Source of the DNA: Escherichia coli | Lineage (GTDB): Bacteria; Pseudomonadota; Gammaproteobacteria; Enterobacterales; Enterobacteriaceae | DNA length: 64,000 nt | Direction: 5' to 3' (one strand) | NCBI RefSeq assembly: GCF_029227855.1 | Contig: NZ_CP074356.1 | In this document: piece after piece, positions 34,862 to 60,127 of the stretch | How positions within the stretch are numbered: position 1 is the stretch's first letter | Layout: each line of letters begins with the position of its first letter | Position numbers and translations under genes: made by a program | Notes under the pieces: generated by a model | Databases searched by the model: none | The model's input: the letters and a program-made list of their open reading frames with translations, nothing else | Told to the model about the DNA's origin: nothing

Positions 34862-34896
34862 GATACTACGCTGGATACTACAACTAACTAGGTTAG

Positions 34897-44550: not shown

Positions 44551-44564
44551 TTGATTTATATCAA
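44551..44564. promoter_or_regulatory. FNR site in the cydA promoter region
   Basis: ttgatttatatcaa is a perfect TTGAT-N4-ATCAA. A weaker copy, ttgatctacgacaa, is at 44499-44512. Confidence 0.75.
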
Positions 44565-45018
44565 AACCAACCAAATATGTTAATTGTGTATAAACCATAG
44601 ATCATTGGTGATTTTATTGTTAATTTATTGTGAAATATTTATGCAACACAATTATTACAATGAAAAGGTATAGATAAAAAACCAGTGTTTTATTTAACAG
44701 AACCGCCTTATCCACTTTTTATAATACCAATTGATTAGATTAGCCAATTTGTTGCTATTTTACATAACATATTTTTATCAAAGTTAATTGATTGTTGCGT
44801 TTATGAGCACCGGCCGTAAGCCCGTTATGTTATTGTTTCATTAGTAATAATCACTTAAATGTATCGATGAAACAGGTATGACTTAGCGGGAGTGATTGTT
44901 TCTGAGTGAACAGAGACCACTTTCGCCTGATAAATGAAAAATGAGCGATTTTTGCAAGTTAGTTTTTCTATAGCCGAGTACGCTCAGCGCCTCGCTTGAT
45001 TACAATGAGGTTGCTGCT

Positions 45019-45963
45019 ATGAGTCCTGATAATATCAGTTCTGCTGTCAATCGCTTCTCAGGTTGGCCATCTAATGATCCTCTAAAAACAGATAAAGAAT
45101 CAATGACATCACCCATGACTGTGCAGGTAATAAAGATGATTGCCGCCATCCTTGACCCACATCGGATAGTCGTTGGAATCGATACACTTTATACAACGCA
45201 GCGCGAAACATTTACCTCAGAGAGTCAACAGCTCATTGAATCAGCATTGCAAACACTTCATGTGATGAATTTAAATAACCTGGAAACAAATCTCGATGAG
45301 GAAGGTCACTATCTGGCTTTTGGATATAACGTTGACACTCCTGACAGAATAACCGTTTCTGCTTATAATGAAAAAAAGCCTGGCTGCTATGGCCAATGTC
45401 TTTTAATACAGGATGACGAAACAGACTTATTTAACCTGATAAAAGTTAAAATTTTTGAAGCCAGGCATAATTATGTCGCTCAATTGATGAGCGATCCGGA
45501 ATTTATGTTCAAATTTAGTTATAGCGCTCAACAAAATAGATTAGAACCTCATCTTCTGGTTCCCACTTATTTCCCTCTAAAAACAAACGAACCGGTTACG
45601 CAAGAGGATGTACTGTTACTTTATCGTTTCTTTAAAATGGATGGTGATTTTAATATATTAACATCAGATGAATACATGAGTATCATGACACCTCTAATGA
45701 AGTGTGAGCGTAGCATCCACGACCACAACAGGTATGTGACGGGCAAAGATACCCTTCTTCTGGACTATCCTCCTTCTGGTAACCAGATATATTTCCATAT
45801 TTTTCCTGACGAATCAGCAACACTAGTCCTTTATTTTTCAAACAATGACATTGAATGTTTCGTCTTTGAAAGAGATATTCCGAGCCAGTATCGCTTTTTC
45901 AAAATGTTTACCAATCTGGCACTGGTTATTGATCAGTTAACCGATGCCAATCAAATACTTTAA
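45019..45963 (+). CDS. Hypothetical protein, 314 aa, with no recognisable family
   Basis: A 315-codon open frame in very AT-rich DNA, where stops are frequent, so coding is likely. A GAGG sits 8 nt upstream of the ATG. I could recognise no motif. Confidence 0.75.
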   Translation: MSPDNISSAVNRFSGWPSNDPLKTDKESMTSPMTVQVIKMIAAILDPHRIVVGIDTLYTTQRETFTSESQQLIESALQTLHVMNLNNLETNLDEEGHYLAFGYNVDTPDRITVSAYNEKKPGCYGQCLLIQDDETDLFNLIKVKIFEARHNYVAQLMSDPEFMFKFSYSAQQNRLEPHLLVPTYFPLKTNEPVTQEDVLLLYRFFKMDGDFNILTSDEYMSIMTPLMKCERSIHDHNRYVTGKDTLLLDYPPSGNQIYFHIFPDESATLVLYFSNNDIECFVFERDIPSQYRFFKMFTNLALVIDQLTDANQIL

Positions 45964-46043
45964 TTTTTATATATTCCCTGTGGCAAATATTGCTAAACAA
46001 TGCCCGGGGATTAATTTTTATTACTCACGGAAAGATTTAAATA

Positions 46044-46466
46044 ATGATCCCATCTCAAATCTCTTTCAACACCCTTCCTGTCAATGCAACATACGCTTCA
46101 GAGACAACAGTTGACACACAAAAATTCTCTGACATCCTCTACTCAGCGGGGTGTTCCCTAAAGGATCTGGCTTATTTGAGCAGATGTCTGGCATCAATAC
46201 ATCCGACTATCGCCAAAAACATTTATGAAACAGAAAATCTCAGCGATCAAAAATTACTACATATTGATTGCCGTAGTACAAATGAAATCAAGATAAATAT
46301 CTTTTTTGGTCGACAACGAGAAGGATTAATTGAAATTAGTTCTGACACAGTCATTTTTTCGATACTGTCTTCATTGATTGACTCCACCATTTCTAAATTT
46401 CAACACCAAAACCCCGTTAACGGTTCTGTAAATCCTGACCTATTGTATGAGGATTATACTGATTAA
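46044..46466 (+). CDS. Hypothetical protein, 140 aa, with no recognisable family
   Basis: A 141-codon open frame in AT-rich DNA, 80 nt downstream of the previous ORF on the same strand. The RBS is weak. Confidence 0.6.
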   Translation: MIPSQISFNTLPVNATYASETTVDTQKFSDILYSAGCSLKDLAYLSRCLASIHPTIAKNIYETENLSDQKLLHIDCRSTNEIKINIFFGRQREGLIEISSDTVIFSILSSLIDSTISKFQHQNPVNGSVNPDLLYEDYTD

Positions 46467-47013
46467 ATCCCTCCTGTCGCGAAAAATGGCCTGCGTTATT
46501 GCCAGACGTAATAAAACTTTTGATTAACGTTTCTCGTACTGGTAGCACCCTCATGTACTTTTCTTTTTTACGAAAAATCAAAAGAGCTAACAAAGGTCAT
46601 AATTCGCATGAATCATTAATTATTTGTTATTTTCAACATTATTTTTACATTAAGCAGAGATGAATTGCAGTGAAATTCGACTTAACTTTTATGAAATGCA
46701 TTTACTCATGGCTAAAGCCACGTCACAAAAATGCAAATTAGAAGTTGATCACAATTATCTCAATACATCAAATCAAGTTAATTTTAAAAATTTAACATTC
46801 ATGACATCAGTTGACATAACACACTGAATTAAAATGAGAATTTGAAAACACACTTTAAACAATCATTTCCCGAAAGACATTTTGAAAATAGATCAATTGC
46901 AACATTACGGTCAGATAAAGACACTCCTGTGATATTAAACCTGTGCCGTTATGAACGGCCATAAATACGACGTGTGTAACTTATTTTACTCTCTGTCTTA
47001 CAAAGGATTACCC

Positions 47014-47463
47014 ATGAAGAAAGCAACACTTGTGATTGGCGTTATTGGCGCGGACTGCCATGCAGTAGGCAATAAAGTTCTGGACCGCGTTTTTAGCAAC
47101 CATGGCTTCAGAGTCATTAATCTGGGCGTAATGGTCAGCCAGGACGAATATATTGATGCTGCCATTGAAACTGGTGCTGACGCGATTGTCGTCTCCTCTA
47201 TCTATGGGCATGGCGATATCGACTGTCTGGACATGCGCGAACGCTGCATCGAGCGTGGACTGGGGGACATCCTGCTCTATGTGGGCGGTAACCTGGTGGT
47301 CGGAAAACATGACTTCGCTGACGTGGAAACCAAATTCAAAGAGATGGGATTTGATCGCGTCTTTGCCCCAAGTCATGACTTAGAAGATGTTTGTCAGCTG
47401 ATGGCCCACGATATCAACCAACGTCATGACGTTGATACTCGTATTCTTGAAGAGGCAATCTGA
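47014..47463 (+). CDS. glmS: Glutamate mutase (methylaspartate mutase) sigma / B12-binding subunit. This is not the GlcN-6-P synthase glmS.
   Basis: [23 protein letters not shown] carries the base-off/His-on cobalamin motif DxHxxG (DCHAVG). RBS aaagga lies upstream of ATG 47014. It is homologous to clostridial GlmS/MutS. Confidence 0.92.
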
Positions 47464-48851
47464 TGCAAATCGTCTCTGTCGATATTGGATCGACGTGGAC
47501 CAAAGCAGCCCTCTTCGCCCGGGAGGGGGACGCGTTAACGTTGGTTAACCACGTACTGACCCCAACCACCCCCCATCATCTGGCGAAGGGGTTTTTCTCC
47601 AGTCTGAACCTGGTGTTAAACGTAGATGATGCCCTCCCCCTGTTTAACAGCGGTGAGGTTGCATTGAAGTATTCCTCCTCTGCCAAAGGTGGGCTGGCGG
47701 TTGCCGCAATGGGATTGGTGCCTTCTATCACCCTGGAAACCGCGAAAGTAACCGCTCACTCTGCGGGGGCTAAAATTGCGCAATATTACGCCTACAAGCT
47801 GAACCGCCGTGATATCCAGGCACTGGAAGAAACGCAGCCCGATATTCTCTTGTTCACCGGCGGCACCGACGGCGGAGAAGAAAGCTACGGCCTGAATAAC
47901 GCCCGTGTGCTGGCAGAATCCAAACTCGACTGCGCCATTATTTATGCCGGAAACCGGGATATTCAGGACAAGGTGCAGGAGATCCTAGGGCATAAAGACC
48001 TGACCATCGTCGACAACGTTCTGCCCGATCTTGACCATCCGAACCCTTTAGCTGCACGCCAGGCTATCTGCGACATATTCCTTAAACGCATCGTTAAAGG
48101 GAAAGGGCTGGATGTCGTTGTTGATAAAACAGGCGAAGAACCAATGCCGACACCGTGGACAGTCTTTGAACTGGTTAAGGCAATCAGTAATGTCGATCAC
48201 AGCTGGAAAGAGTTCATGCTGATCGACATGGGCGGCGCAACCACCGATGTCTATTCCGCCTGTGCCAACACGCTCTCGCCCGACACCGTTTTACACGGCG
48301 TACCGGAACCCTTCGTGAAACGGACGGTGGAAGGCGATCTGGGAATGCGCGTCTCGGCAATGGTGGTTGGTGAAAGTGCGAAAGAGTTAGTCAATGTGAA
48401 TTTTGCTCAGCAACCCGCACAGCTGGACGCTTTTTATCATTACCTCCGTCATCTAGTCGCTCATCCCGACTACTTACCCGCGAATTCAGAAGAAAAATAT
48501 TTCGATACCGTCCTGGCCGGACTGTGTGTGGGTTATGCCACCGAAAGACATGCGGGCACCAAAAAAGAGGTCTGCACCTGCGTCGGCAATGTCGATTTAC
48601 AGATGGGACGTGACCTGACAACCGTGCGTAAAGTCGTCGGATCCGGCGGATGGCTCTCGCGTGCCAGTCAGTTCGATATGCATCACTGGTTGAAATACCG
48701 CAAGTTAAACGACGACGGTAAACGCATTCTCTTACCGACCGAATTTGAATATTACCGCGATTCCCGGGGGCTATTACCATTGCTGGCAAACGTCGCCAGA
48801 GTCGATCCGCTGGCCGCCGCGCGCACCAGTATTCAATGCTTAACCCTATAA
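47463..48851 (+). CDS. glmL: Glutamate mutase accessory protein GlmL/MutL (ASKHA-fold putative reactivase)
   Basis: A 462 aa ORF ([18 protein letters not shown]...). Its start overlaps the glmS stop (TGATG) and it sits between the S and E subunits, as in Clostridium. Confidence 0.85.
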   Translation: MQIVSVDIGSTWTKAALFAREGDALTLVNHVLTPTTPHHLAKGFFSSLNLVLNVDDALPLFNSGEVALKYSSSAKGGLAVAAMGLVPSITLETAKVTAHSAGAKIAQYYAYKLNRRDIQALEETQPDILLFTGGTDGGEESYGLNNARVLAESKLDCAIIYAGNRDIQDKVQEILGHKDLTIVDNVLPDLDHPNPLAARQAICDIFLKRIVKGKGLDVVVDKTGEEPMPTPWTVFELVKAISNVDHSWKEFMLIDMGGATTDVYSACANTLSPDTVLHGVPEPFVKRTVEGDLGMRVSAMVVGESAKELVNVNFAQQPAQLDAFYHYLRHLVAHPDYLPANSEEKYFDTVLAGLCVGYATERHAGTKKEVCTCVGNVDLQMGRDLTTVRKVVGSGGWLSRASQFDMHHWLKYRKLNDDGKRILLPTEFEYYRDSRGLLPLLANVARVDPLAAARTSIQCLTL

Positions 48852-48869
48852 CAATTAAGGCTGCAATCA

Positions 48870-50315
48870 ATGGAACTTCGAAATAAGAAATTAACCCATG
48901 ACGAATTCATGACCGAGCGGCAACAGGTACTGAAAACCTGGGAAACCGGCAAGGATGTTGAAAACTTTGAAGATGGCGTTAAATACCAACAAACCATTCC
49001 TGAGCATAAACGCTTCTCTCTTGCGCTGTTGAAAGCAGACAAGGAAGGTAAAACCCTTAGCCAACCGCGCGCAGGTGTGGCGCTGATGGACGAACACATC
49101 GAACTACTGAAAACACTACAAGAAGAGTGCGATCTGCTGCCGAGCACTATCGATGCATATACCCGTCTGAATCGGTACGAAGAAGCGGCTGTAGGGATTA
49201 AAAAATCCATCGAAGCCGGAACCTCTAAACTGAACGGTTTGCCGGTAGTTAACCATGGCGTCGCAGCTTGCCGTCGCCTCACCGAAACCCTGCAAAAACC
49301 GCTACAGATCCGCCACGGCACGCCAGATGCGCGTCTGCTGGCTGAAATCTCGATGTCCAGCGGCTTTACCAGTTACGAAGGCGGCGGCATTTCCTACAAC
49401 ATTCCGTATGCCAAACGCGTAACGCTGGAAAAATCGATCCGCGACTGGCAGTACTGCGACCGTTTAATGGGGATGTATGAAGAACACGGGATCCGCATCA
49501 ACCGCGAACCGTTTGGCCCACTAACAGGTACGCTGATCCCGCCGTTTATCTCGCACTCTATCGCGATAATCGAAGGCTTGCTGGCGCTGGAACAGGGTGT
49601 GAAATCTATCACCGTTGGTTATGGACAGGTCGGCAGCCTGACGCAGGATGTTGCGGCGATCCAGTCTCTGCGTGAACTTGCACACGAATATTTTCAGAGC
49701 TATGGCTATACCGACTATGAATTAAGTACCGTGTTTCACCAGTGGATGGGCGGCTTTCCGGAAGACGAATCGAAAGCGTTCGCTATTATCTCCTGGGGCG
49801 CAGCCGTCGCGGGGATGTCTGGTGCCACCAAAGTCATCACCAAAAGCCCGCACGAAGCCTGGGGTATCCCGACTGCCGCTGCCAACATTCAGGGGCTGAA
49901 AGCCTCCCGCCAGATGCTCAACATGGTCAACGAGCAGAAATTCCCGCCGTGCCCTGCGGTTGAACTGGAAATTGAACTGATTAAGAGCGAGGTTCGCGCG
50001 GTACTGAATAAAGTGTTCGAACTGGGTAATGGTGATATTGCGCGCGGTACGGTGCTGGCATTTGAAGCGGGCGTACTGGATGTGCCGTTTGCGCCAGCCG
50101 CCTGCAACGCGGGCAAAATTCTTCCGGTCCGTGACAACACCGGCGCGATACGCGTACTGGAAGCCGGAGCCGTTCCATTGCCAAAAGATATTCTCGACCT
50201 CCACCACGATTACGTTGCTGAACGCGCACGCTTTGAAGGACGCCAACCGACATTCCAGATGGTTGTAGATGACATCAATGCTGTATCCCACAGTAAATTA
50301 ATAGGAAGACCATAA
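48870..50315 (+). CDS. glmE: Glutamate mutase epsilon (catalytic) subunit
   Basis: A 481 aa ORF. MELRNKKLTHDEF...SQPRAGVALMDEHIELL...PSTIDAYTRLNRY...HQWMGGFPEDESKAF aligns along its length with clostridial GlmE as I remember it. Confidence 0.93.
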   Translation: MELRNKKLTHDEFMTERQQVLKTWETGKDVENFEDGVKYQQTIPEHKRFSLALLKADKEGKTLSQPRAGVALMDEHIELLKTLQEECDLLPSTIDAYTRLNRYEEAAVGIKKSIEAGTSKLNGLPVVNHGVAACRRLTETLQKPLQIRHGTPDARLLAEISMSSGFTSYEGGGISYNIPYAKRVTLEKSIRDWQYCDRLMGMYEEHGIRINREPFGPLTGTLIPPFISHSIAIIEGLLALEQGVKSITVGYGQVGSLTQDVAAIQSLRELAHEYFQSYGYTDYELSTVFHQWMGGFPEDESKAFAIISWGAAVAGMSGATKVITKSPHEAWGIPTAAANIQGLKASRQMLNMVNEQKFPPCPAVELEIELIKSEVRAVLNKVFELGNGDIARGTVLAFEAGVLDVPFAPAACNAGKILPVRDNTGAIRVLEAGAVPLPKDILDLHHDYVAERARFEGRQPTFQMVVDDINAVSHSKLIGRP

Positions 50316-51556
50316 TGAAAATAAAACAGGCCCTTTTTACCGCTGGCTACTCCTCATTCTATTTCGATGACCAGCAGGCGATAAAAAACGGAGCGGGTCA
50401 CGACGGTTTTTTTTATACCGGGGAGCCAGTAACACAGGGGTTTAACGCCGTACGTCAGGCCGGGGAGTGCGTATCGGTACAGTTGATTCTGGAAAACGGC
50501 GCGGTCGCCGTAGGTGACTGTGCTGCCGTACAGTATTCCGGGGCAGGCGGTCGCGATCCACTGTTCCTCGCGGAGCACTTTATTCCGTTCCTCAACGACC
50601 ATATCAAGCCATTACTGGTAGGCCGCGATGTGGATGTTTTCCTGCCGAATGCCCGTTTCTTCGACAAATTGCGTATTGACGGCAACTTGCTGCATACCGC
50701 CGTGCGCTACGGATTATCACAGGCTCTGCTTGATGCTACCGCGCTGGCAACCGGCCGTCTGAAAACTGAAGTGATCTGTGATGAATGGCAGTTGCCACGC
50801 GTGGCGGAATCCATTCCATTATTTGGTCAGAGCGGGGACGATCGATATATCGCCGTCGATAAGATGATCCTTAAGGGCATCGACGTGCTGCCCCATGCGC
50901 TGATTAATAACGTCGAAGAGAAGCTGGGCTTTAAAGGTGAAAAACTGCGCGAATATGTCCGCTGGTTGTCGGATCGCATTCTGAGCAAGCGCACCAGCGC
51001 ACGCTACCACCCAATCCTGCACATCGATGTATACGGCACTATCGGTCTGATCTTCGATATGGATCCGCTTCGCTGTGCGCAATACATCGCCAGCCTGGAA
51101 AAAGAAGCGCAAGGCCTGCCGCTCTACATTGAAGGGCCGGTCGATGCCGGTAACAAGCCCGATCAAATTCGCCTGCTGACCGCGATTACCAAAGAGCTGA
51201 CGCGCCTCGGTTCCGGCGTGAAACTAGTGGCCGATGAATGGTGTAACACCTACCAGGATATTGTTGATTTCACAGATGCCGCCAGTTGCCACATGGTGCA
51301 AATCAAAACCCCGGATCTGGGCAGTATTCACAACATCGTCGATGCAGTTCTTTATTGCAACAGCCACAGCATGGAAGCGTACCAGGGCGGCACCTGCAAT
51401 GAAACTGATGTCAGTGCCCGCACCTGTGTCCACGTCGCCCTTGCCGCTCGCCCCATGCGTATGCTGGTAAAACCAGGGATGGGCTTTGACGAAGGCCTCG
51501 ATATCGTCTTCAACGAAATGAATCGTACTATCGCGCTGTTGCAGGCTAAGGATTAA
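50315..51556 (+). CDS. mal: 3-methylaspartate ammonia-lyase (enolase superfamily)
   Basis: A 413 aa ORF. MKIKQALFTAGYSSFYFDDQQAIKNGAGHDGF...AVQYSGAGGRDPLF...HMVQIKTPDLG...GGTCNET is clearly homologous to the Clostridium tetanomorphum methylaspartase. Its start overlaps the glmE stop (TAATG). Confidence 0.94.
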   Translation: MKIKQALFTAGYSSFYFDDQQAIKNGAGHDGFFYTGEPVTQGFNAVRQAGECVSVQLILENGAVAVGDCAAVQYSGAGGRDPLFLAEHFIPFLNDHIKPLLVGRDVDVFLPNARFFDKLRIDGNLLHTAVRYGLSQALLDATALATGRLKTEVICDEWQLPRVAESIPLFGQSGDDRYIAVDKMILKGIDVLPHALINNVEEKLGFKGEKLREYVRWLSDRILSKRTSARYHPILHIDVYGTIGLIFDMDPLRCAQYIASLEKEAQGLPLYIEGPVDAGNKPDQIRLLTAITKELTRLGSGVKLVADEWCNTYQDIVDFTDAASCHMVQIKTPDLGSIHNIVDAVLYCNSHSMEAYQGGTCNETDVSARTCVHVALAARPMRMLVKPGMGFDEGLDIVFNEMNRTIALLQAKD

Positions 51557-51559
51557 CAA

Positions 51560-52930: not shown

Positions 52931-53244
52931 AACAGTCAATTGTCTCACTGGCGCAAGTCATTCGTTCGAAAAATGCCGGACCTTACGAACTGGTTTTAGA
53001 TATTTTATTTAAAACGAAAGAAAACTATGAGCGAGTTAAATCATCAGGGCAATTAACCCCAGAACTGATTGCGCGCTTATATCATGTTGAACCTGACTTT
53101 ATTCACCGTATTGTCTGGTTTGATCCTTCTAACGCAGTAAAAATCGTCATGCCACGAGATATTATCTCCGGGAATGTAGGTGACAATGATGTCTATGGTG
53201 CACAGCAACATGCACCTTTATTAAATATGAGTTTCGATTTGTAA
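52927..53244 (+). CDS. Uncharacterised small protein, DUF4387-like
   Basis: A 105 aa ORF whose start overlaps the upstream stop (ATGA). The motifs VIRSKNAGPYEL and YGAQQHAPLL are what I recall as DUF4387 hallmarks. Confidence 0.8.
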   Translation: MKQSIVSLAQVIRSKNAGPYELVLDILFKTKENYERVKSSGQLTPELIARLYHVEPDFIHRIVWFDPSNAVKIVMPRDIISGNVGDNDVYGAQQHAPLLNMSFDL

Positions 53245-53326
53245 AAATCCGAATACTTTTAGCCAACTGACATCCCGTCACTTATTGCAGTTCAACACTT
53301 CAGCTATTTGTAAGGTTGTAATAGCA

Positions 53327-53360
53327 GGTAGATGCCTGAATCTCTATTCAGGCATCTACT
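53327..53360 (+). terminator. Long perfect inverted repeat between the DUF4387 gene and the transporter gene (possible attenuator/terminator or protein site)
   Basis: ggtagatgcctgaat-ctct-attcaggcatctac has a 14-15 bp stem, but the downstream T-tract is poor (ttctcctgatt). Confidence 0.4.
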
Positions 53361-53404
53361 TCTCCTGATTCTGATTTATCGCCGTGCACCTGATGGAGGA
53401 AAAA

Positions 53405-54685
53405 ATGAAGAAAATAAGTTTAACCACGATGATTCTTTTGGCGCTGGTACTTGGAATGATTATCGGCGTAGTGCTCAATAACACTGCTTCACCGGAAACC
53501 GCAAAACTCTATGCGCAAGAAATATCGATATTCACGACGATTTTCTTACGACTGATAAAAATGATTATCGCTCCGTTAGTGGTCTCTACCCTGGTGGTAG
53601 GTATAGCTAAAATGGGCGATGCCAAAGCCCTTGGTCGTATTTTTTCTAAAACACTCTTTTTATTTATTTGCGCCTCATTGCTGTCAATTGCCTTAGGCTT
53701 GATAACAGTAAATTTCTTCATGCCAGGCACAGGAATTAATTTTGTTGCACACGGAGCCGAAACCACCGGAGTGGTCGCGTCAGAACCCTTTACGCTAAAA
53801 GTATTTATTTCGCATGCTTTCCCCACCAGCATTGTCGATGCCATGGCGCACAATGAAATTTTGCAAATCGTGGTGTTCTCAATTTTCCTCGGCTGTAGCC
53901 TGACGGCGATTGGCGAGAAAGGCAGCGCCATCGTTCACGCCTTAGATTCGCTGGCACATGCCATGTTAAAGCTCACTGGCTACGTCATGCTCTTCGCTCC
54001 CCTGACCGTATTCGCTGCTATTTCAGCATTGATTGCTGAACGAGGACTGGCAGTTATGGTGAGCGCCGGGATCTTTATGGGTGAATTTTATTTCACCATG
54101 TTATTACTTTGGGTGCTGCTTATCGGTCTGGCCATCGTTTATGTTGGCCCCTGCATCAGACGCCTGACCCGCGCCCTTTCGGAACCCGCCCTGCTGGCAT
54201 TTACCACATCCAGTTCTGAAGCGGCTTTTCCGGGAACGCTTGAAAAACTGGAGCAATTTGGCGTTTCCCCAAAAATTGCCAGTTTTGTCTTACCCATTGG
54301 CTACTCATTTAATCTCGTTGGATCAATGGCCTACTGCTCCTTCGCCACAGTTTTCATCGCCCAGGCCTGCAATATCCATTTATCCATCGGTGAGCAAATC
54401 ACCATGCTGTTGATCCTGATGTTGACCTCGAAAGGAATGGCTGGCGTACCACGCGCCTCAATGGTGGTTATCGCCGCCACGCTCAACCAGTTCAATATTC
54501 CGGAAGCGGGGCTGATCTTGCTGATGGGCGTTGATCCGTTCCTTGATATGGGGCGTTCAGCGACAAACGTCATGAGCAACGCAATGGGCGCTGCGATGGT
54601 GAGTCGGTGGGAAGGCGAACATTTCGGCGAGGGCTGTCGGGGTAAAGCATTAAAACCCAATGAATCGAACGTTGCTCTGCCCTGA
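53405..54685 (+). CDS. DAACS-family (GltP/DctA-like) dicarboxylate/amino acid:cation symporter
   Basis: A polytopic membrane protein with the family motif TSSSEAAFP. I place the start at ATG 53405, behind GGAGGA. Alternative starts lie at 53384 and 53393. Confidence 0.88.
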   Translation: MKKISLTTMILLALVLGMIIGVVLNNTASPETAKLYAQEISIFTTIFLRLIKMIIAPLVVSTLVVGIAKMGDAKALGRIFSKTLFLFICASLLSIALGLITVNFFMPGTGINFVAHGAETTGVVASEPFTLKVFISHAFPTSIVDAMAHNEILQIVVFSIFLGCSLTAIGEKGSAIVHALDSLAHAMLKLTGYVMLFAPLTVFAAISALIAERGLAVMVSAGIFMGEFYFTMLLLWVLLIGLAIVYVGPCIRRLTRALSEPALLAFTTSSSEAAFPGTLEKLEQFGVSPKIASFVLPIGYSFNLVGSMAYCSFATVFIAQACNIHLSIGEQITMLLILMLTSKGMAGVPRASMVVIAATLNQFNIPEAGLILLMGVDPFLDMGRSATNVMSNAMGAAMVSRWEGEHFGEGCRGKALKPNESNVALP

Positions 54686-54792
54686 GGGGGATCTTAAGCA
54701 ATCAGAAGCCAATGACTACGCATTTTTATAAGCCGGATCATGAAGTTAGACGGCAATTAAGTAAAACTAACGTTTAAGGTGAAAAGTGAAAT

Positions 54793-56445
54793 ATGTCCAA
54801 ACCATTTATCTGGCAAGAACCGTTTCTACAAAATAAAGACGGTACAGAATATACATTAATTAGCGATCAACATATTACAGTAACGGAATTAGACGGCGAA
54901 GAAGTAATAAAAATCGCTCCTGAAGCATTAACGCTGCTTGCCCGGCAGGCATTTTATGAAGCCTCTTTTTTCTTACGTTCCGCTCATTTGCAACAGGTCG
55001 CCAGCATTCTTAACGATCCGCAGGCCAGTAGTAATGATAAATACGTTGCGTTGCAGTTATTACGTAATGCTGAAGTCTCAGCAAAAGGGGTATTACCCAA
55101 CTGTCAGGATACCGGCACCGCAACTATTGTTGCCAGTAAAGGGCAACAGATATGGACGGGAGGTAACGACGCTGAAGCCTTAAGCAAAGGCATTTACACC
55201 ACTTTTCAGGAAAATAATCTGCGCTTTTCACAAAATGCGCCACTGGATATGTTTACCGAAGTCAATACGCAAACCAATCTCCCGGCGCAGATTGATATCA
55301 GCGCCGTCGCTGGTGATGAGTACCATTTTCTCTGTATTAATAAAGGGGGCGGCTCTGCCAATAAAGCCGCGCTTTATCAGGAAACCAAATCCCTATTGCA
55401 ACCAGAAAAACTGACCGCATTTTTAATCGAAAAAATGAAATCGCTGGGCACCGCTGCCTGCCCGCCTTACCACATCGCCTTTGTCGTCGGAGGACTTTCA
55501 GCCGATCAAACCTTAAAAGTTGCCAAGCTGGCCTCAACGAAATATTACGACAATTTGCCCACCAGCGGAAACGAGCAAGGACAAGCATTCCGTGATATTG
55601 AGCTGGAAAAAGTATTGCTCGAGGCCAGTCAGCAATTTGGTATTGGTGCGCAATTTGGGGGTAAATATTTCGCTCATGATATTCGCGTCATTCGTCTGCC
55701 GCGTCACGGTGGCTCTTGCCCGATAGCTATGGCGCTCTCCTGTTCTGCGGATCGCAATATCAAAGCAAAAATTAACAAGCACGGTATCTGGCTGGAAAAA
55801 CTCGAACACAATCCGGGGCAATATATTCCAGCCTCACTGCGGGAAGAAAATCACGCGCAACATGTACAGCTGGATCTAAACCGTCCGTTGCGTGACGTGA
55901 TGCAGGATCTCGCCAGATTACCGGTAGGCACCCGCGTGTCGTTAAGTGGTCCCATCGTAGTGGCGCGCGATATCGCCCACGCCAAAATAAAAGCGCGGCT
56001 GGATAGCGGCGAACCGATGCCGGATTACCTGAAGCATCATATTGTCTATTACGCTGGCCCGGCGAAAACACCGGAGAACATGGCCTGCGGTTCACTGGGT
56101 CCAACCACGGGCGGTCGAATGGACGGTTATGTCGATACCTTCCAGGCGGTTGGCGGCAGTCTGGTGATGTTATCGAAAGGTCACCGCAGCCAGCAGGTCA
56201 CCGATGCCTGTCACAAACATGGCGGCTTCAATCTGGGAAGTATTGGCGGTGCAGCTGCGTTACTGGCGCAAGAATATGTCAAAAGTCTGCGTTGCCTGGA
56301 ATACCCGGAGCTGGGTATGGAAGCGGTGTGGATGATGGAAGTGGAAAATCTGCCCGCATTCATCCTGGTAGATGATAAAGGCAATAATTTCTTTAGTCAG
56401 TTTGAGCAGCAACACCGCTGCGCCAGTTGCCCTGCGGGACATTAA
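54793..56445 (+). CDS. fumD: Class I (Fe-S) fumarate hydratase homologue, the FumD-type mesaconase/fumarase
   Basis: A 550 aa ORF colinear with E. coli FumA ([11 protein letters not shown]...CQDTGTA...GGGSANK...CPPYHIAFV...GPTTGGRMD...). It is a third class I paralogue located in the methylaspartate cluster. Confidence 0.9.
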
Positions 56446-56454
56446 GGAAAATGA

Positions 56455-57057
56455 ATGGAAGCGCGAATTTCAACTGAACGGCATGTGCAGCGCCAGCAGA
56501 AATTGAAGGAACAGGTCGATACGCGCATCGCGGCGGCGATAGAGAAAAAAGGGATTTTGATTGTTTTCACCGGCAATGGCAAAGGGAAATCCACTGCCGC
56601 GTTTGGTACTGTGACGCGCGCGGTGGGTCATGGCAAAACGGTGGGGGTTGCGCAGTACATCAAGGGGCAATGGGACAACGGCGAATACAACCTTCTCCAG
56701 CCGCTGGGGGTTGAGTTTCATATTATGGGAACCGGTTTTACCTGGGAGACACAGAACCGGCAAGCGGATATCGACGCGGCGAAAGAGGTCTGGTCGGAAA
56801 GCAAACGGATGCTGGCTGACAAGCGTTACGACTTAGTGGTGCTTGATGAGCTGACCTATATGCTGGCTTACCATTATCTGGATACCGAAGAAGTGATCGC
56901 TTCTCTGCAAAACCGCCCGGCACAACAAAGTGTCATTGTCACCGGACGCGGTTGCCACAGTCAGATATTAAAAATGGCGGATACGGTCAGCGAAATCCGC
57001 CCCGTCAAACATGCTTTTGATAACGGCATTCAGGCGCAGCCGGGTATCGACTGGTAA
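56455..57057 (+). CDS. ATP:cob(I)alamin adenosyltransferase (CobA/BtuR family paralogue)
   Basis: A 200 aa ORF. ILIVFTGNGKGKSTAAFG (P-loop)...GFTWETQNR...VVLDELTYM...RPVKHAFDNGIQAQPGIDW aligns with BtuR. It starts 9 nt after fumD. Confidence 0.92.
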   Translation: MEARISTERHVQRQQKLKEQVDTRIAAAIEKKGILIVFTGNGKGKSTAAFGTVTRAVGHGKTVGVAQYIKGQWDNGEYNLLQPLGVEFHIMGTGFTWETQNRQADIDAAKEVWSESKRMLADKRYDLVVLDELTYMLAYHYLDTEEVIASLQNRPAQQSVIVTGRGCHSQILKMADTVSEIRPVKHAFDNGIQAQPGIDW

Positions 57058-57060
57058 TAA

Positions 57061-57092
57061 CTGCGCCTGGCATCCCGCCAGGCGCAGGTTTT
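57061..57092. terminator. Bidirectional hairpin between the convergent adenosyltransferase and LysR genes
   Basis: ctgcgcctgg-catcccg-ccaggcgcag followed by gtttta. Confidence 0.6.
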
Positions 57093-57996
57093 ACATCTCC
57101 TGCGGTACAACCGATTTCGCCAGCAACCATTCACGAAATTGCTGCAAGTGCGGTGAGTCAGACTTCTCTTCCTGCCACGTCATAATAAAACGATTACCGG
57201 TACGAATAGGCACATCACAGGGGATCACCATATCGCCACTATCCAAATCATGTTGAATAGCGAAACGTGGTAACAGCGCCACGCCGAGATTAGAGCGCAC
57301 GGCGGCAATCAGCATTGAAAGCAAATCGAAACGTGGTCCGTTGTTGACCAGTGGACTGCTAACGCCAGATAAAGCAAACCACTCTTCCCAGCCAGTAATA
57401 CGGGTGCTTTGATGCAGAAGTGGTAACTCAGTAAGCAGTTCTGCCACTGACAGTTTTTGATCGGACATTGCAAGCAAACTGCCGCTGCATACCGGCAAAA
57501 TCTCCTCATCAAAGAGATATTCTACTTCCGCCCAGGGCGCGCAAAAATTTTCGCGCATAATGACAGCATCGTACTCCCGATTAAGAAAATCGCCGTTATT
57601 AGCTAAAGAGTGAATATTAACAATAATATCGGGATGTAACTTTGTGAATTCATGTAAATTTGGGATTAACCAGTGGGTACTAAACGTAGGATTCACGGCA
57701 AGTTCAATAACCTGAACCGTAGGCTGCCAGGTCATAATAGTATTGGTATCGCGTTCCAGCTTATTTAATGTTTCTTTTACTATCCCCAGGTAATACTTCC
57801 CTGCATCATTAAGAAAAATACGTTTTTTAGAGTGTGAAAATAACGGAGTATGTAAAAATTCCTCCAGCGCACTCACTTGTCTGAATACAGCACTTTGGGT
57901 TAACGCTAACTCCTCTGCCGCTCTGGTATAACTTTCATAACGTGCGACGACCTCAAAAGTCACCAGCAGCTCCGTTTTAGGTATTTTTCCTCGCAT
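57091..57996 (-). CDS. LysR-type transcriptional regulator
   Basis: MRGKIPKTELLVTFEVVARYESYTRAAEELALTQSAVFRQVSALEEFL (wHTH) gives 301 aa from ATG 57996. The track ORF begins at an upstream TTG. The gene is visibly AT-rich. Confidence 0.88.
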   Translation of the reverse strand: MRGKIPKTELLVTFEVVARYESYTRAAEELALTQSAVFRQVSALEEFLHTPLFSHSKKRIFLNDAGKYYLGIVKETLNKLERDTNTIMTWQPTVQVIELAVNPTFSTHWLIPNLHEFTKLHPDIIVNIHSLANNGDFLNREYDAVIMRENFCAPWAEVEYLFDEEILPVCSGSLLAMSDQKLSVAELLTELPLLHQSTRITGWEEWFALSGVSSPLVNNGPRFDLLSMLIAAVRSNLGVALLPRFAIQHDLDSGDMVIPCDVPIRTGNRFIMTWQEEKSDSPHLQQFREWLLAKSVVPQEM

Positions 57997-58208
57997 AATT
58001 CCGTCCGTGAAAAAATAACAATTCAAAAATTATTTTATAAAAAACAGTAGCACTAATGAATATCATAATTCAAATAAACAAACCAGTCAGCTATATGTCT
58101 AACCAGGAAAATAAAGTGACAATAATCCTAAAACAGGAATTTCACCTCAGTTATCCGCATGCAATACTTTAAAGCTATTATTGCAAGAATATTATTCATA
58201 TACATGAA

Positions 58209-58334
58209 TATACTCTAAATAAGTCAAGTTGCAGGAAGGGAACAAATAATGAATTTCCAGAAGCTTACATAAGTAAGTGACCTGAGTGAGCGAACATCGA
58301 TGCAGCACATGCAACTTGAATTATGACAAGTATA
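58209..58334. repeat. ERIC (IRU) repeat, degenerate copy
   Basis: tatactctaaataagtcaagttgcaggaaggg...atgaatttccagaagcttacataagtaagtgacctgagtgagcg...gcaacttgaattatgacaagtata aligns end to end with the copy at 11653-11779. It has many substitutions that weaken the central hairpin. Confidence 0.85.
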
Positions 58335-58585
58335 CAATGATAAATTTATATACCCTATGTTATATATTATCTATGTCCGGTTAAATTGAATGAGTCATGG
58401 CCTTAAAAGACTTCACAAAAGATAATTCCTCTTTAACAATAAGCCAGATTTACCACTTGTAAAACTTGCTATCGCCACATACACTACGCGCGTTTTCTTT
58501 CCCTTTTGCTGGCTGCTGACCGGAAAGACAAAATTACCCTCGCAATACAGGGGGTTGTTTAACGTCTATATTTCAGGACAGCGTT

Positions 58586-59983
58586 ATGCATCATCTTTCA
58601 AGGCTTGATAAAGCCTTTCTGCGCAAAGGGATCCAACTTTCCCGCGCCAACAATATTGTTTCATTATCTCGTCCATCAGGTGCCAGTGCCCGCGTACTGC
58701 TGCCGGACGAACTGCCGCTGGAAGAAAAAGCAGTAACACAACTGCTTGATTTTGCAGAAGTGAAGCTACCAGACCACCCAGGTTATGTGCGCCAGACGTG
58801 CGCGACGCCAGATTTTCATCCCGGCAATGGCGTCCCCGTTGGCGCGGTGGTGGCCTCAACGCCGGATTTAGTCATTCCCGCCGCCATCGGCACCGATATT
58901 TCTTGTGGCATGCGGCTGCTGACGACCGGATTAACACTTGAGCAAGCCGAAGCGCATAAAGACATCATCGCTCAGCGGTTAACGCAAGTGCTGCTGCAAA
59001 ATGAGCGCGATGTTCCGTTATCCGCACAGGCGTTCACTGCGCTTTTTGATGGCGGACCGGCAGATTGCGTGTCGACCTTGCCATCAGCAGGTCTCTGGAC
59101 ACGCACGAATATCCCCCGAATGGTACAAGAGATTGACTGCTGCATTGGGCTTAACGAGCATAACAGTCATTCGCGTTATGCCCCACCCGCCCTGCTGGCA
59201 ACGGACCGCGCATTACTCCGCGATCCTTGTCTGGGTACGCCGGGTTCAGGTAATCATTTTATTGAACTTCAGGTCGTTGATAGCGTGGTTGATCGCCATG
59301 TAGCCTGGCAACAAGGGCTGAAAACAGGCGATATTGTGGTGATGATCCACAGTGGATCGCGAGATGTTGGCTTTTACGTCGGAAGACGCTGGATGGATCG
59401 CGCCCGTGCTGAATGGCCCACCGGACATAAACATCCACAAAGCGGGTTATATGGTCTGGCAGGCGGACTGGCGGAGGAATATCTACAAGCGATAGGAATG
59501 GCTGCGCGTTACGCGTGGTTAAATCGCGTCACAATTGCCGAAATGGTGCGCGTATGTCTCGCCAATCTCTTTCATCAGGACAATTCGCATCTGGTGGTGG
59601 ATGTGCCGCATAACATCATCCTTCGCGAGCATGAAATGAATATTCATCGCAAAGGTGCAACACCGGCACGAGTGGGCGATCTGGCATTAATCCCCGGTTC
59701 AATGGGCGATTATTCGTGGCTTGCAGTCGGTTGCGGCAACCCGGAGTGGCTGTGGTCATGCAGTCACGGAGCAGGACGCAGCCAGCGTCGACAGGCCATG
59801 CGCTCAAGCGCGACTGAAGAGTCAACGCTGCCGTGGCAATGCGTCACATTGCGTGAAGAACGACGTCTTGAAGAAGCGCCAGCGGCTTATAAAGATATTG
59901 GTCCGGTTATCGAAGCCCAACAAGAAGCCGGATTAATTCAACCAGCGGTCAGATTTCGACCGTGGTTAACGTTTAAGGGGTAA
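58586..59983 (+). CDS. RtcB-family RNA 3'-phosphate ligase homologue (stand-alone)
   Basis: A 465 aa ORF carrying the RtcB signature motifs DFHPGNG, GTDISCGM, GSGNHFIE, HSGSRDVG, VPHNI, HRKGATP, PGSMG, SHGAGR and EAPAAYK. Confidence 0.9.
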   Translation: MHHLSRLDKAFLRKGIQLSRANNIVSLSRPSGASARVLLPDELPLEEKAVTQLLDFAEVKLPDHPGYVRQTCATPDFHPGNGVPVGAVVASTPDLVIPAAIGTDISCGMRLLTTGLTLEQAEAHKDIIAQRLTQVLLQNERDVPLSAQAFTALFDGGPADCVSTLPSAGLWTRTNIPRMVQEIDCCIGLNEHNSHSRYAPPALLATDRALLRDPCLGTPGSGNHFIELQVVDSVVDRHVAWQQGLKTGDIVVMIHSGSRDVGFYVGRRWMDRARAEWPTGHKHPQSGLYGLAGGLAEEYLQAIGMAARYAWLNRVTIAEMVRVCLANLFHQDNSHLVVDVPHNIILREHEMNIHRKGATPARVGDLALIPGSMGDYSWLAVGCGNPEWLWSCSHGAGRSQRRQAMRSSATEESTLPWQCVTLREERRLEEAPAAYKDIGPVIEAQQEAGLIQPAVRFRPWLTFKG

Positions 59984-60065
59984 CTGAAATGATAAATGGC
60001 CTGCGGTTCTCACGCAGGTCAAATCTGGTATCTGCGTAAGCTAACAAACTTGTTTATCAACAATC

Positions 60066-60089
60066 TCAGGCCATCCGAAGATGGCCTGA
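60066..60089. terminator. Hairpin downstream of mngB
   Basis: tcaggccatc-cgaa-gatggcctga stem-loop. There is no clear U-tract on either strand. Confidence 0.35.
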
Positions 60090-60127
60090 AATTATTGCCC
60101 CCCTTAGATACACTTTTAGCGCAATAA

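Follow-up and report, generated by a model that had tools for sequence, protein, structure and literature searches.

The window, a 64,000-nt stretch of the Escherichia coli contig NZ_CP074356.1, carries 13 intact genes at positions 45019–59983, between the cydA regulatory region and mngB, as seen in the list of open reading frames. All 13 are annotated as CDS in the RefSeq record of E. coli JNEC-KY178, which is 100% identical to the window. In K-12 MG1655, mngB is followed by an 846-bp spacer and cydA, and none of the block genes is present; alignment with MG1655 thus agrees with the first-pass annotation, which had reported 13 extra ORFs at this site that are missing in K-12. The features of the locus are as follows:

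44214–44854, no strand: cydAB regulatory region, an Escherichia-type haplotype linked to the cluster, as judged by identity to relatives (GC 0.31)
44855–46722, no strand: AT-rich insert specific to Escherichia, separating the cyd promoter region from the region upstream of glmS (GC 0.37)
45019–45963, plus strand: hyp314, ORFan (dN/dS 0.47 against Sakai; GC3 0.35)
46044–46466, plus strand: hyp140, ORFan (dN/dS 0.22–0.33)
46880–46900, plus strand: conserved 21-nt block TTTTGAAAATAGATCAATTGC, about 115 nt upstream of glmS
47014–47463, plus strand: glmS, glutamate (methylaspartate) mutase subunit S, B12-binding (NF002612, 252 bits, cutoff 110; TIGR01501, 242 bits, cutoff 135.8)
47463–48851, plus strand: glmL (mutL), glutamate mutase reactivating/accessory protein (NF040745, 506 bits, cutoff 475; TIGR01319, 878 bits)
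48870–50315, plus strand: glmE, glutamate mutase subunit E (TIGR01503, 863 bits, cutoff 390; dN/dS 0.03)
50315–51556, plus strand: mal, 3-methylaspartate ammonia-lyase (TIGR01502, 544 bits, cutoff 286)
51560–52930, plus strand: cmlA, putative citramalate lyase subunit A, AtuA/DUF1446 family (PF07287; PDB 9ERQ/9EVF chain A)
52927–53244, plus strand: cmlB, putative citramalate lyase subunit B, DUF4387 (PF14330; PDB 9ERQ/9EVF chain B)
53405–54685, plus strand: GltP/DctA-like dicarboxylate/amino acid:cation symporter (PF00375, 343 bits)
54793–56445, plus strand: fumD, class I fumarase acting as mesaconase (NF011921, 1281 bits, cutoff 1060)
56455–57057, plus strand: cobO, ATP:cob(I)alamin adenosyltransferase (TIGR00708, 247 bits, cutoff 168; PF02572)
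57061–57087, no strand: GC-rich terminator-like hairpin between the convergent cobO and lysR (11-bp stem, 9 G-C pairs)
57091–57996, minus strand: LysR-type regulator, GcvA-like (PF00126 and PF03466)
57997–58585, no strand: AT-rich spacer between lysR and rtcB, peculiar to the window-type allele (GC 0.34)
58209–58334, no strand: ERIC/IRU dispersed repeat, a 126-bp imperfect palindrome with 25-nt inverted ends
58586–59983, plus strand: orphan RtcB-family RNA ligase paralogue (PF01139, 319 bits)
59984–60127, no strand: rtcB-mngB spacer, unique to the window allele, with a hairpin at 60058–60097
60128–62761, minus strand: mngB, diverged allele, right flank (NF007331, 1495 bits)

Ten of the 13 genes constitute the published enterobacterial methylaspartate (glutamate fermentation) cluster, namely glmS-glmL-glmE-mal, the AtuA-family and DUF4387 genes, the gltP-like gene, fumD, cobO and the LysR gene. 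The block is therefore real but already known, encoding the B12-dependent route, reported for E. coli O157:H7, that turns glutamate into pyruvate and acetate. The initial comparison with a cluster of O157:H7-type strains was correct: the Sakai glutamate fermentation cluster ECs0755-ECs0767, reported by Kronen and Berg in 2015 (PMC4682846), is 98% identical. The two glmS profile matches both begin at residue 22–24 of the longer ORF, so the real start is 47014, as in the PGAP annotation. FumD is 98% identical to Sakai ECs0757, for which a preference for mesaconate was demonstrated biochemically (PMC4682846). CmlA aligns over residues 1–456 of 456 with chain A of PDB 9ERQ/9EVF, named “Citramalate lyase, subunit A (cmlA)” (E = 4e-289, about 91% identity), and CmlB aligns over residues 1–104 with chain B, “Citramalate lyase, subunit B (cmlB)” (E = 5e-57). 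From these PDB molecule names and one preprint, the AtuA/DUF4387 pair is assigned as a predicted citramalate lyase, CmlAB, and because of the about 91% identity to the solved two-subunit enzyme the pathway endpoint is likely pyruvate and acetate. This assignment outdates the earlier count of at least five genes with no role, leaving three: the two ORFans and the RtcB-family ligase.

In the proposed pathway, glutamate would enter through the GltP-like symporter, for which glutamate is only a presumed substrate since the protein scores below both the GltP and DctA equivalog cutoffs. The adenosylcobalamin-dependent mutase GlmS/GlmE would then convert glutamate to (2S,3S)-3-methylaspartate, with GlmL maintaining mutase activity and CobO adenosylating scavenged cobalamin. 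Methylaspartate ammonia-lyase would release ammonia and form mesaconate, which FumD would hydrate to (S)-citramalate, as demonstrated for the 98%-identical O157 enzyme, and CmlAB would cleave citramalate directly to pyruvate and acetate. E. coli is not known to synthesize B12 de novo, so the pathway would rely on outside corrinoids. Control of the cluster is likely exerted by the LysR-type protein, whose gene is kept with the cluster at all Enterobacteriaceae loci and lies divergent from glmS in Yersinia. The block TTTTGAAAATAGATCAATTGC is identical across Escherichia, Citrobacter, Salmonella, Klebsiella and Pseudescherichia, within a spacer that is otherwise unconserved, making it a candidate operator or promoter element. 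The order glmS-glmL-glmE-mal-cmlA-cmlB is maintained out to Rhodocyclales, Clostridia, Planctomycetes and Dictyoglomota, with cmlB directly behind cmlA in every case as far as Dictyoglomota. Compared with Sakai, the cluster genes show dN/dS of 0.03–0.2, and in three diverged E. coli alleles all ten core genes remain intact and show purifying selection.

The remaining three genes appear to be later additions. For hyp314, no match was found in Pfam, NCBIfam, PADLOC or the PDB, and protein libraries of 5.8 billion and 1.84 billion sequences contained only Escherichia-type relatives; its AlphaFold2 model (pLDDT 43) was of too low confidence for use. Family searches with hyp140 returned no match, and its named homologues are solely from E. 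coli or Shigella. The insert at 44855–46722 is absent in E. whittamii, Escherichia sp. E1V33 and all other genera compared, in which the cydA-glmS gap is 0.85–1.4 kb. The RtcB-family ligase falls below every NCBIfam equivalog cutoff but retains the catalytic motifs in an alignment with the Pyrococcus and Thermus structures, and neither rtcA, rtcR nor prfH was found among its neighbours. Upstream of it, only the last 108 bp of the lysR-rtcB spacer (58478–58585) are shared with the hut-type allele, where they likewise precede rtcB; downstream, nothing in the K-12, Sakai, 1532WA or TPR-type loci corresponds to the rtcB-mngB spacer. The ERIC repeat reported in the AT-rich segment beside lysR was confirmed as the palindrome listed above, and a typical genome carries 7 such repeats (median over 5,425 E. 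coli genomes).

The GC profile agrees with the mosaic composition first described by eye, with AT-rich edges (0.31 in the cyd upstream region, 0.37 at 44855–46722 and 0.34 in the lysR-rtcB spacer) and a core-like middle (0.525 from glmS to cmlB; 0.54 in rtcB). Further dips were found at 52.75–53.75 kb, covering cmlB (GC 0.39) and the 5' end of the gltP-like gene, and at 54.5–55.25 kb. Both GC and GC3 of the core cluster genes are host-like. The borders were likewise found to lack mobility markers, as had been noted: no tRNA lies within 40–64 kb (the nearest array is at 34171–35072), an Rfam search gave zero matches, family searches of the 13 block proteins detected no integrase, transposase or phage family, and no direct repeats bracket the block. 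The preference for homologous recombination in the flanks over site-specific integration held up, and the diverged flanks fit such exchange.

On the left, positions 1–44584 are collinear with K-12 from uvrB to cydA, so the K-12-like core order claimed for this part stands, with the sole exception of a 711-bp IS200 at 28277–28987. Identity to K-12 is 98–100% in most 250-bp bins from position 35.6 kb, through cydB and cydA, to about 44288, and lower (87–96%) in the tolA repeat region. Past about 44288 it drops to about 80%, in a homologous but diverged cyd promoter region, and ends at 44584, while homology to TPR-type and ST131-type E. coli alleles and to E. whittamii extends to 44854. A junction does lie near the proposed 44937, but cassette-specific DNA begins at 44855, where homology to these other alleles has ended. 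In the 400 bp upstream of cydA, the window matches E. whittamii and cryptic Escherichia at 94–98% identity and the TPR-type E. coli allele at 96%. Its identity to K-12 there is just 78.6%, so that the K-12 allele is as distant from that of the window as are the alleles of other genera. The outlier among cyd promoter alleles is that of K-12, and the cluster-linked allele is the Escherichia-wide one. On the right, K-12 homology starts again at 60125, at the mngB stop codon. Identity is 74–88% at the 3' end of mngB (74–92% across the 3' half), 97–98% at its 5' end and about 100% near 63000 in mngA; over 60125–61200, the window shares 87.8% or 82.6% identity with other E. coli mngB alleles.

Six or more structural alleles of the sucD-cydA interval exist in E. 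coli. Of 5,426 complete genomes, 1,116 (about 21%) carry at least 80% of the block, and 132 (about 2.4%) have the rtcB-mngB junction, which marks the arrangement of cluster, ERIC, rtcB and diverged mngBAR; a hut + rtcB allele is found in 144. Sampled carriers other than the window type (Sakai, AHB30 and 1532WA) lack mngRAB entirely. The Sakai lysR-sucD spacer is composed of hutH and rtcB remnants, and rtcB remnants adjoin sucD in Sakai, E. whittamii and Escherichia sp. E1V33. Beyond E. coli, the space between cydA and sucD also houses the glmS-to-lysR cluster in Klebsiella, Citrobacter, Salmonella arizonae/diarizonae, Pseudescherichia, E. whittamii and cryptic Escherichia, with cydB-cydA-[cluster]-sucD-sucC synteny in at least five genera. 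Given this shared chromosomal location in several related genera, the cluster seems to be an old resident missing from K-12 rather than a recent insertion. In a set of 32 taxa, protein distances of the island correlate with those of the flanks (Mantel r = 0.66, p about 0.0005), and both give the same ranking when measured from E. coli; nucleotide identities of cluster and flanks are also ranked alike. Strict vertical descent is nevertheless not demonstrated, since between E. coli and sister Escherichia the cluster genes differ by 9–15% at the DNA level and cydAB and sucCD by 3–4%, and the cluster proteins of Klebsiella, Citrobacter and Salmonella all lie at a distance of about 0.11 from those of E. 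coli, a flat pattern, with flanks ranging from 0.05 to 0.09; repeated allelic replacement at one site would be expected to give a similar pattern. Within E. coli, cluster alleles are 1–2% apart, like core genes.

We therefore weighed three other explanations. That the block is a horizontally acquired island, placed by flank recombination into a K-12-like mngB-cydA junction with K-12 as the ancestral empty site, is unlikely. It would account for the absence of the block from K-12 and about 79% of complete genomes, the AT-rich edges, the lack of an integrase or tRNA, the divergence of both flanks from K-12, and the position of the block in the window, bounded precisely by the cyd promoter region on one side and the mngB stop codon on the other. 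The claim of insertion into a K-12-like core is weakened by the occurrence of the cluster in the cydA-sucD slot of at least five genera and sister Escherichia species, diverging in step with its flanks, and insertion beside a K-12-like mngB by the non-K-12 allele adjoining the block and the lack of mngRAB in the other sampled carriers. The rtcB and hutH remnants beside sucD, the Escherichia-wide distribution of the cluster-linked cyd promoter allele and the host-like composition of the core genes also argue against it. Somewhat more credible, if still improbable, is repeated cross-genus transfer with conserved cydAB and sucCD as homology arms, so that shared position would reflect targeting instead of common descent. 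The roughly threefold excess divergence of the cluster over its flanks between E. coli and sister Escherichia, the flat intergeneric distances, the sharp identity break at 44288 inside the cydA leader and the patchy presence of the cluster among Salmonella and Klebsiella species (see also PMC4682846) are consistent with such transfer. Against it stand the overall agreement in distance ranking and the core-gene-like spread of E. coli alleles; moreover, cydAB and sucCD are presumably slow-evolving and highly expressed, so the cluster would be expected to change faster anyway.

A third alternative, ranking between these two and also doubtful, concerns function: the cluster may not serve glutamate fermentation in E. 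coli, being instead a silent relic, a route for mesaconate, citramalate or methylaspartate use, or a means of using histidine-derived glutamate only in hut-keeping strains. In O157:H7, Kronen and Berg found no condition under which the genes were expressed and no anaerobic growth on glutamate (PMC4682846), and the region upstream of glmS is AT-rich; the hut operon within the locus in the 144 genomes, and its remnants in Sakai, would suit a role in histidine breakdown. The purifying selection on ten intact genes, the completeness of the set from transporter through lyase, and the retention of the regulator and upstream motif across genera point the other way. We consider it probable (roughly 0.75) that the block represents the enterobacterial methylaspartate (mesaconate) cluster already described, with three later additions, its core long resident in the cydA-sucD interval and its alleles swapped by recombination. 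Under this preferred reading, the glmS-to-lysR core would be a long-term resident of Enterobacteriaceae, joined by two AT-rich Escherichia-only ORFans beside the cyd promoter, an ERIC repeat and the orphan ligase. The interval would be a recombination hot spot that holds either the cluster, which may or may not be accompanied by the hut operon and rtcB, or a TPR gene, or no cassette at all, each with or without mngRAB; these alternatives are probably exchanged through the conserved cyd and suc flanks. K-12 would lack the cluster because it carries another allele, and the window would be a rare composite of the cluster with diverged mngBAR.

Like the window, the clostridial cluster (Clostridium tetanomorphum, C. 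tetani) encodes GlmS, GlmL (MutL), GlmE and MAL, followed by mesaconase and citramalate cleavage, with the same overall chemistry (PMC4682846). In clostridia the mesaconase is the two-subunit MesAB and citramalate is cleaved by an ACP-dependent lyase of the CitDEF type, whereas the window encodes the fused class I fumarase FumD and the unrelated CmlAB. The window pair, a predicted lyase, shares the two-subunit AtuA-family and DUF4387 organization of the CmlAB citramalate lyase of PDB 9ERQ/9EVF (Cml of Raoultella planticola). With classical tRNA-linked genomic or pathogenicity islands the block shares strain-variable presence and AT-rich edge segments; unlike them, it lacks integrase and phage genes, a tRNA and direct repeats, its core is host-like in composition, and its position is common to several genera. 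From hyp314 to lysR, Sakai ECs0755-ECs0767 agrees with the window in gene content and order (98.2% DNA identity over 14 kb; 94–100% protein identity), and its left junction with cydA is identical in kind, but there hutH and rtcB remnants come after lysR and before sucD, with no ERIC-containing spacer and no mngRAB, whereas the window has an intact rtcB and diverged mngBAR. The allele of E. coli 1532WA and FDAARGOS_497, consisting of the cluster, hutHGI-hutD-permease-hutU and rtcB, shares the cluster, the left junction and rtcB (95% protein identity) with the window. It differs in having the histidine-utilisation operon between lysR and rtcB and rtcB abutting sucD; in the window, a 481-bp AT-rich stretch with ERIC replaces hut, and mngBAR lies between rtcB and sucD.

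Between the cydA upstream region and mngB, the window carries 13 open reading frames at 45019-59983, in the order hyp314, hyp140, glmS, glmL, glmE, mal, cmlA, cmlB, a gltP-like symporter gene, fumD, cobO, lysR and rtcB. The same 13 PGAP coding sequences lie between cydA and mngB in E. coli JNEC-KY178, which is 100% identical to a 16.5-kb query across the region, confirming the gene count of the first-pass annotation. That annotation had also described the block as missing from K-12, and MG1655 indeed has mngB, an 846-bp spacer and then cydA. The K-12 gene order it proposed from uvrB to cydA was likewise found, with window positions 1-44584 collinear except for a 711-bp IS200 insertion at 28277-28987 in the gpmA-aroG spacer, 16 kb from the block. 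The insertion carries one gene:

28386-28895, minus strand, IS200/IS605-family transposase ORF (NF033573, 147 bits)

On the left, most 250-bp bins across cydB and cydA match K-12 at 98-100%. This level of identity lasts until about 44288 (75 nt upstream of the cydA start), where it drops sharply to about 80%; homology to K-12 ends at 44584, with no similarity beyond. Against TPR-type and ST131-type E. coli, E. whittamii and Escherichia sp. E1V33, homology reaches 44854, so that cassette-specific DNA starts at 44855 and not at 44937, where the left edge had been placed. On the right, similarity to K-12 picks up again at 60125, the mngB stop codon. Amid the 98-100% identical core, the tolA repeat region (38250-38750) shows 87-93% identity to K-12.

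Integrase, transposase and phage families are not represented among the 13 proteins, consistent with the earlier statement that mobility genes do not mark the borders. No tRNA was found within 40-64 kb of the window; the closest form an ordinary Lys/Val array at 34171-35072, 9 kb off. A difference between this array and that of K-12 was considered and rejected, as both contain five Lys and two Val genes. No direct-repeat pair brackets 44.6-44.9 kb and 60.0-60.1 kb. Near-identical 15-mers, GAAAAATGGCCTGCG and GATAAATGGCCTGCG, occur at 46481-46495 (after the hyp140 stop) and 59991-60005 (after the rtcB stop), and may reflect chance or a common terminator-like motif. The ERIC element noted between lysR and rtcB was recovered as a 126-bp imperfect palindrome with 25-nt inverted ends at 58209-58334, which we take to match the published ERIC consensus; across 5,425 E. 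coli genomes, ERIC copies number 2-14 per genome (median 7) at 80-90% identity.

The mosaic composition first judged by eye was borne out by GC content calculated by segment, which is low in the cyd upstream region (0.31), in 44855-46722 (0.37) and in the lysR-rtcB spacer (0.34) and higher from glmS to cmlB (0.525) and in rtcB (0.54). Core genes from glmS to cobO have GC contents of 0.49-0.55, comparable to the window mean of 0.505, and the AT-rich parts are limited to the hyp segment, cmlB, lysR and the spacers. Within the 47.0-57.1 kb for which core-like GC had been proposed, dips occur at cmlB and the transporter start and at 54.5-55.25 kb. cmlB (52927-53244) has a GC of 0.39 and GC3 of 0.33, with values of 0.55 and 0.62 for the overlapping upstream cmlA, and is 99-100% conserved across the E. 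coli alleles compared.

Comparison of E. coli genomes revealed at least six structural alleles of the sucD-cydA interval.

Structural alleles of the sucD-cydA interval in E. coli (L-numbers are the compared loci)
K-12 type: mngRAB only
ST131 type: TPR gene, intact (L085 3154-4347), and mngRAB
FDAARGOS_1260 type: TPR pseudogene only (L005 10544-11659)
Sakai/AHB30 type: glutamate cluster only
1532WA type: cluster, histidine-utilisation (hut) operon and rtcB
Window type: cluster, ERIC, rtcB and mngBAR

In the ST131 and FDAARGOS_1260 types, the TPR-repeat gene fills the slot beside the cyd promoter region in place of the glutamate cluster. At least 80% of the 16.5-kb query is carried by 1,116 of 5,426 complete genomes (21%), close to the 26.5% carriage reported in 2015 (PMC4682846). 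The window allele is a rare composite: its lysR-ERIC-rtcB-mngB arrangement is present in 132 genomes (2.4%), and the firm figure for cluster carriers that also have mngRAB is limited to these 132 with the rtcB-mngB junction. The hut operon together with rtcB was found in 144 of the 5,426 (2.7%); in 1532WA, hutH, hutG, hutI, hutD, a permease gene and hutU lie between lysR and rtcB (L004 20267-28008). In Sakai, the 669 bp between lysR and sucD are made up of the hutH-proximal region together with fragments of hutH (61 bp) and rtcB (57 bp) and the 3' end of rtcB; these remnants identify the Sakai type as a deletion derivative of a hut-plus-rtcB allele. Remnants of rtcB also adjoin sucD in E. whittamii and Escherichia sp. 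E1V33. The mngB gene of the window is not the K-12 allele, since identity to K-12 is 74% at the stop codon (60125) and rises over about 3 kb through 88%, 92% and 95-98% to approximately 100% near 63000, in mngA. Over the 3' kilobase, most of the remaining E. coli mngB alleles show 87.8% or 82.6% identity to the window, so that E. coli harbours at least three deeply diverged forms of the mngB 3' region.

A protein scan with CmlA, taking one genome per species, yielded 75 loci, which were annotated by tblastn with reference proteins. The order cydB-cydA-[glmS ... lysR]-sucD-sucC was found in Klebsiella grimontii, K. michiganensis, several Citrobacter, Pseudescherichia, Salmonella enterica subsp. 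arizonae and diarizonae, E. whittamii and the cryptic Escherichia E1V33, with a cydA-glmS gap of 0.85-1.4 kb, free of the ORFans hyp314 and hyp140, in these non-E. coli taxa. For K. oxytoca, K. spallanzanii and other Citrobacter loci the cydA side was confirmed, sucD lying past the fetched DNA. Absence from sister taxa at the same site, as expected of an island, is therefore not what was observed, the cluster lying between cydA and sucD there. In Citrobacter amalonaticus S646 (L029 1-4817) and an Enterobacter MAG (L034 1-5117), mngB-mngA-mngR lies upstream of glmS, occupying its cydA side, with cydA itself outside the fetched DNA. In the window, by contrast, mng is on the sucD side of the cluster; mng and the cluster thus share a neighbourhood in other genera, in another order.

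Cluster-gene DNA identity to the window was 98-99% within E. coli, mostly 85-92% in other Escherichia (79-95% in MOD1-EC7003), 74-84% in Citrobacter, Salmonella and Klebsiella, and 70-78% in Pseudescherichia. The flanking cydAB and sucCD genes rank alike, at 98-100%, 96-99%, 84-92% and 83-88% for E. coli, Escherichia, the three genera and Pseudescherichia, respectively, and the protein distance matrices of cluster and flanks correlate (Mantel r = 0.66, p ~0.0005, 32 taxa). The first-pass annotation had implied an island placed into a K-12-like core; with the cluster in the same slot in other genera this polarity is reversed, and the cluster core appears to have resided at the site for a long time instead of having recently entered a K-12-like backbone. 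The shared position may reflect either strictly vertical inheritance with recurrent loss or repeated allelic replacement at this site. Room for such replacement is left by a divergence of the cluster genes roughly threefold that of the flanks when E. coli is compared with sister Escherichia, and by the flat distances from E. coli to the three other genera. The interval behaves as a recombination hot spot, with whole alleles probably swapped via the conserved cyd and suc homology arms, in agreement with the earlier preference for homologous recombination over site-specific integration.

The cyd promoter region differs markedly between haplotypes. Over the 400 bp upstream of cydA, the window shows 94-98% identity to other Escherichia species, 96% to the TPR type of E. 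coli and only 78.6% to K-12; window 44289-44584 aligns with the K-12 cydAB promoter region (L007 16091-16383) at about 79-80%. The K-12 upstream region is itself 72-80% identical to every other genus sampled. The K-12 cyd promoter haplotype is thus the odd one out and is not representative of the species, and regulatory sites may differ between the two haplotypes. A more far-reaching reading, tentative at a probability of roughly 0.45, is that the K-12 arrangement sucD-mngRAB-cydA, commonly regarded as core, is derived, an imported replacement that included the cydAB promoter, and that the cluster with rtcB is ancestral in Escherichia. If so, the imported K-12-type segment would have carried with it a cydAB promoter region as diverged as that of a different genus, and the cydAB regulatory region known from textbooks would be just one of two deeply different alleles. 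The sucD-cydA interval would then be a two-slot recombination hot spot in which several ancient haplotypes persist within E. coli.

The block had been likened to a methylaspartate-pathway cluster of O157:H7-type E. coli, and it corresponds to what Kronen and Berg (PMC4682846) described in Enterobacteriaceae as the 'glutamate fermentation gene cluster'. All ten core genes, glmS to lysR, are full length, with dN/dS of 0.03-0.2 relative to the Sakai allele. Apart from cmlA and cmlB, they were assigned as follows.

Assignments of core cluster genes (model, score, cutoff)
glmS, true start 47014: glutamate mutase subunit S; TIGR01501, 242 bits (135.8)
glmL/mutL: mutase reactivase/accessory protein; NF040745, 506 bits (475)
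glmE: glutamate mutase subunit E; TIGR01503, 863 bits (390)
mal: 3-methylaspartate ammonia-lyase; TIGR01502, 544 bits (286)
Symporter gene: DAACS-family symporter; family match
fumD: FumD-type class I fumarase (mesaconase); NF011921, 1281 bits (1060)
cobO: cob(I)alamin adenosyltransferase; TIGR00708, 247 bits (168)
lysR: GcvA-like LysR regulator; family match

The window FumD is 98% identical to O157:H7 ECs0757, which Kronen and Berg showed to be a genuine mesaconase. Their account left the DUF1446 gene without a function and the citramalate-cleaving enzyme missing (PMC4682846). CmlA aligns over all 456 residues to chain A of PDB entries 9ERQ and 9EVF at about 91% identity, and the DUF4387 protein CmlB aligns to chain B (E = 5e-57); the chains are named 'Citramalate lyase, subunit A (cmlA)' and 'subunit B (cmlB)'. 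A 2026 preprint employs the two-subunit citramalate lyase cmlAB of Raoultella planticola, which splits citramalate directly into pyruvate and acetate. With cmlA and cmlB assigned by sequence, the pathway is complete on paper. The earlier statement that at least five genes lack a role consequently falls for these two and stands for hyp314, hyp140 and rtcB. Annotation pipelines still label cmlA and cmlB 'AtuA family' and 'DUF4387'.

The closest cmlA relatives directly follow glmS-glmL-glmE-mal in nearly all fetched loci (directly after glmE in one Bacillota locus), and loci with cmlA after the mutase genes extend to Rhodocyclales, Telmatospirillum, Planctomycetes, Desulfotomaculum, Clostridia, Alloprevotella and Dictyoglomota. 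From this conserved order, the AtuA/DUF4387 pair was considered as a newly recognized missing citramalate lyase, a claim we dropped because the PDB entries are already solved and named. In non-enterobacterial clusters, a 288-307-aa protein with a Walker A motif (GxxGxGKS) is encoded directly after cmlB or after the mesaconase gene(s), which are mesAB in the Dictyoglomota loci and an alpha-subunit gene in the Bacillota locus. It was located at:

L058 11845-12768, Walker A protein
L059 11789-12712, Walker A protein
L060 9857-10780, Walker A protein
L064 11793-12707, Walker A protein
L072 9990-10856, Walker A protein
L077 8207-9127, Walker A protein
L078 13030-13950, Walker A protein

These proteins are 45-83% identical across Rhodocyclales, Bacillota and Dictyoglomota, match no Pfam, NCBIfam or PDB family apart from P-loop matches, and are absent from the E. 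coli island; they may represent an undescribed accessory factor of the pathway.

In the pathway we propose, the symporter, judging by its family, would import glutamate, which GlmSE, supported by GlmL and CobO, is predicted by equivalog models to convert to methylaspartate. MAL, assigned in the same way, would form mesaconate, and FumD would hydrate it to (S)-citramalate, as demonstrated for the 98%-identical enzyme. CmlAB would then yield pyruvate and acetate, given its approximately 91% identity to the solved and named enzyme and the use of a homologue in vivo. Some E. coli, including O157:H7, would thereby be able to turn glutamate into pyruvate, acetate and ammonia in a B12-dependent manner. 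Hut yields glutamate, so hut strains encode a contiguous route from histidine to pyruvate and acetate, and in them the route can begin with histidine. E. coli depends on external corrinoids, and the pathway could be of use for growing in the gut, an anaerobic setting that offers both amino acids and corrinoids.

The LysR protein may control the cluster, possibly through a conserved motif at 46880-46900. This 21-nt block, TTTTGAAAATAGATCAATTGC, lies about 115 nt upstream of glmS and is identical in five genera, the surrounding spacer being unconserved; it is probably bound by a regulator. An FNR site was considered here and is not called, because the TTGAA and ATCAA half-sites are 5 nt apart and the canonical spacing is 4. 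A B12 riboswitch or other RNA element upstream of glmS was considered and rejected, as Rfam gave no match at E <= 1 across 44000-60300. In O157:H7, Kronen and Berg found no condition under which the cluster genes are expressed (PMC4682846).

An AT-rich insert of 1.87 kb (44855-46722), missing from other Escherichia species and from other genera, contains the ORFans hyp314 and hyp140; Escherichia sp. MOD1-EC7003, whose contig ends after cobO, has a 50%-identical hyp314 homologue. Neither protein matched Pfam, NCBIfam or PADLOC, hyp314 had no PDB match, and very large protein libraries gave no relatives of either outside Escherichia and Shigella. Only Escherichia-type copies and fragments of hyp314 came back from a word-indexed search and from HMMER run against all 1.84 billion representatives, and an AlphaFold2 model of it from a 4-sequence alignment had a pLDDT of 43. 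GC3 is 0.34-0.35 for the two genes, and dN/dS values of 0.47 (hyp314) and 0.22-0.33 (hyp140) indicate relaxed but not neutral constraint. They may be new genes recruited beside the operon. Homology of hyp314 to the conserved P-loop protein of 290-307 aa encoded after cmlB in non-enterobacterial clusters was rejected, the two having no similarity. RtcB scores 319 bits against PF01139 and falls short of every NCBIfam equivalog cutoff. Alignment to the Pyrococcus and Thermus structures shows its catalytic motifs PDFHpGnG, DIsCG, GSGNHF, HSGSR, PHN and sCHGAGR to be kept, in line with an RtcB domain that has the metal-binding Cys/His/Asp residues and the His nucleophile. Its neighbours are lysR and mngB; the partner genes rtcA/rtcR, or prfH (RtcB2), are not adjacent. 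A defence system in the AT-rich ORFans or rtcB was also discarded, with no PADLOC match.

The island, the pathway it encodes, how it is distributed in E. coli and, by now, its final enzyme have all been documented before: with content and biochemistry published or deposited, no new system is added. Our additions to the glutamate fermentation cluster of O157:H7 are modest. They comprise the organisation of the site as a hot spot, the reading of the cluster as ancestral and the deep divergence of the cydAB promoter haplotype, and they correct the view of its site from a simple insertion to a multi-allele recombination hot spot.
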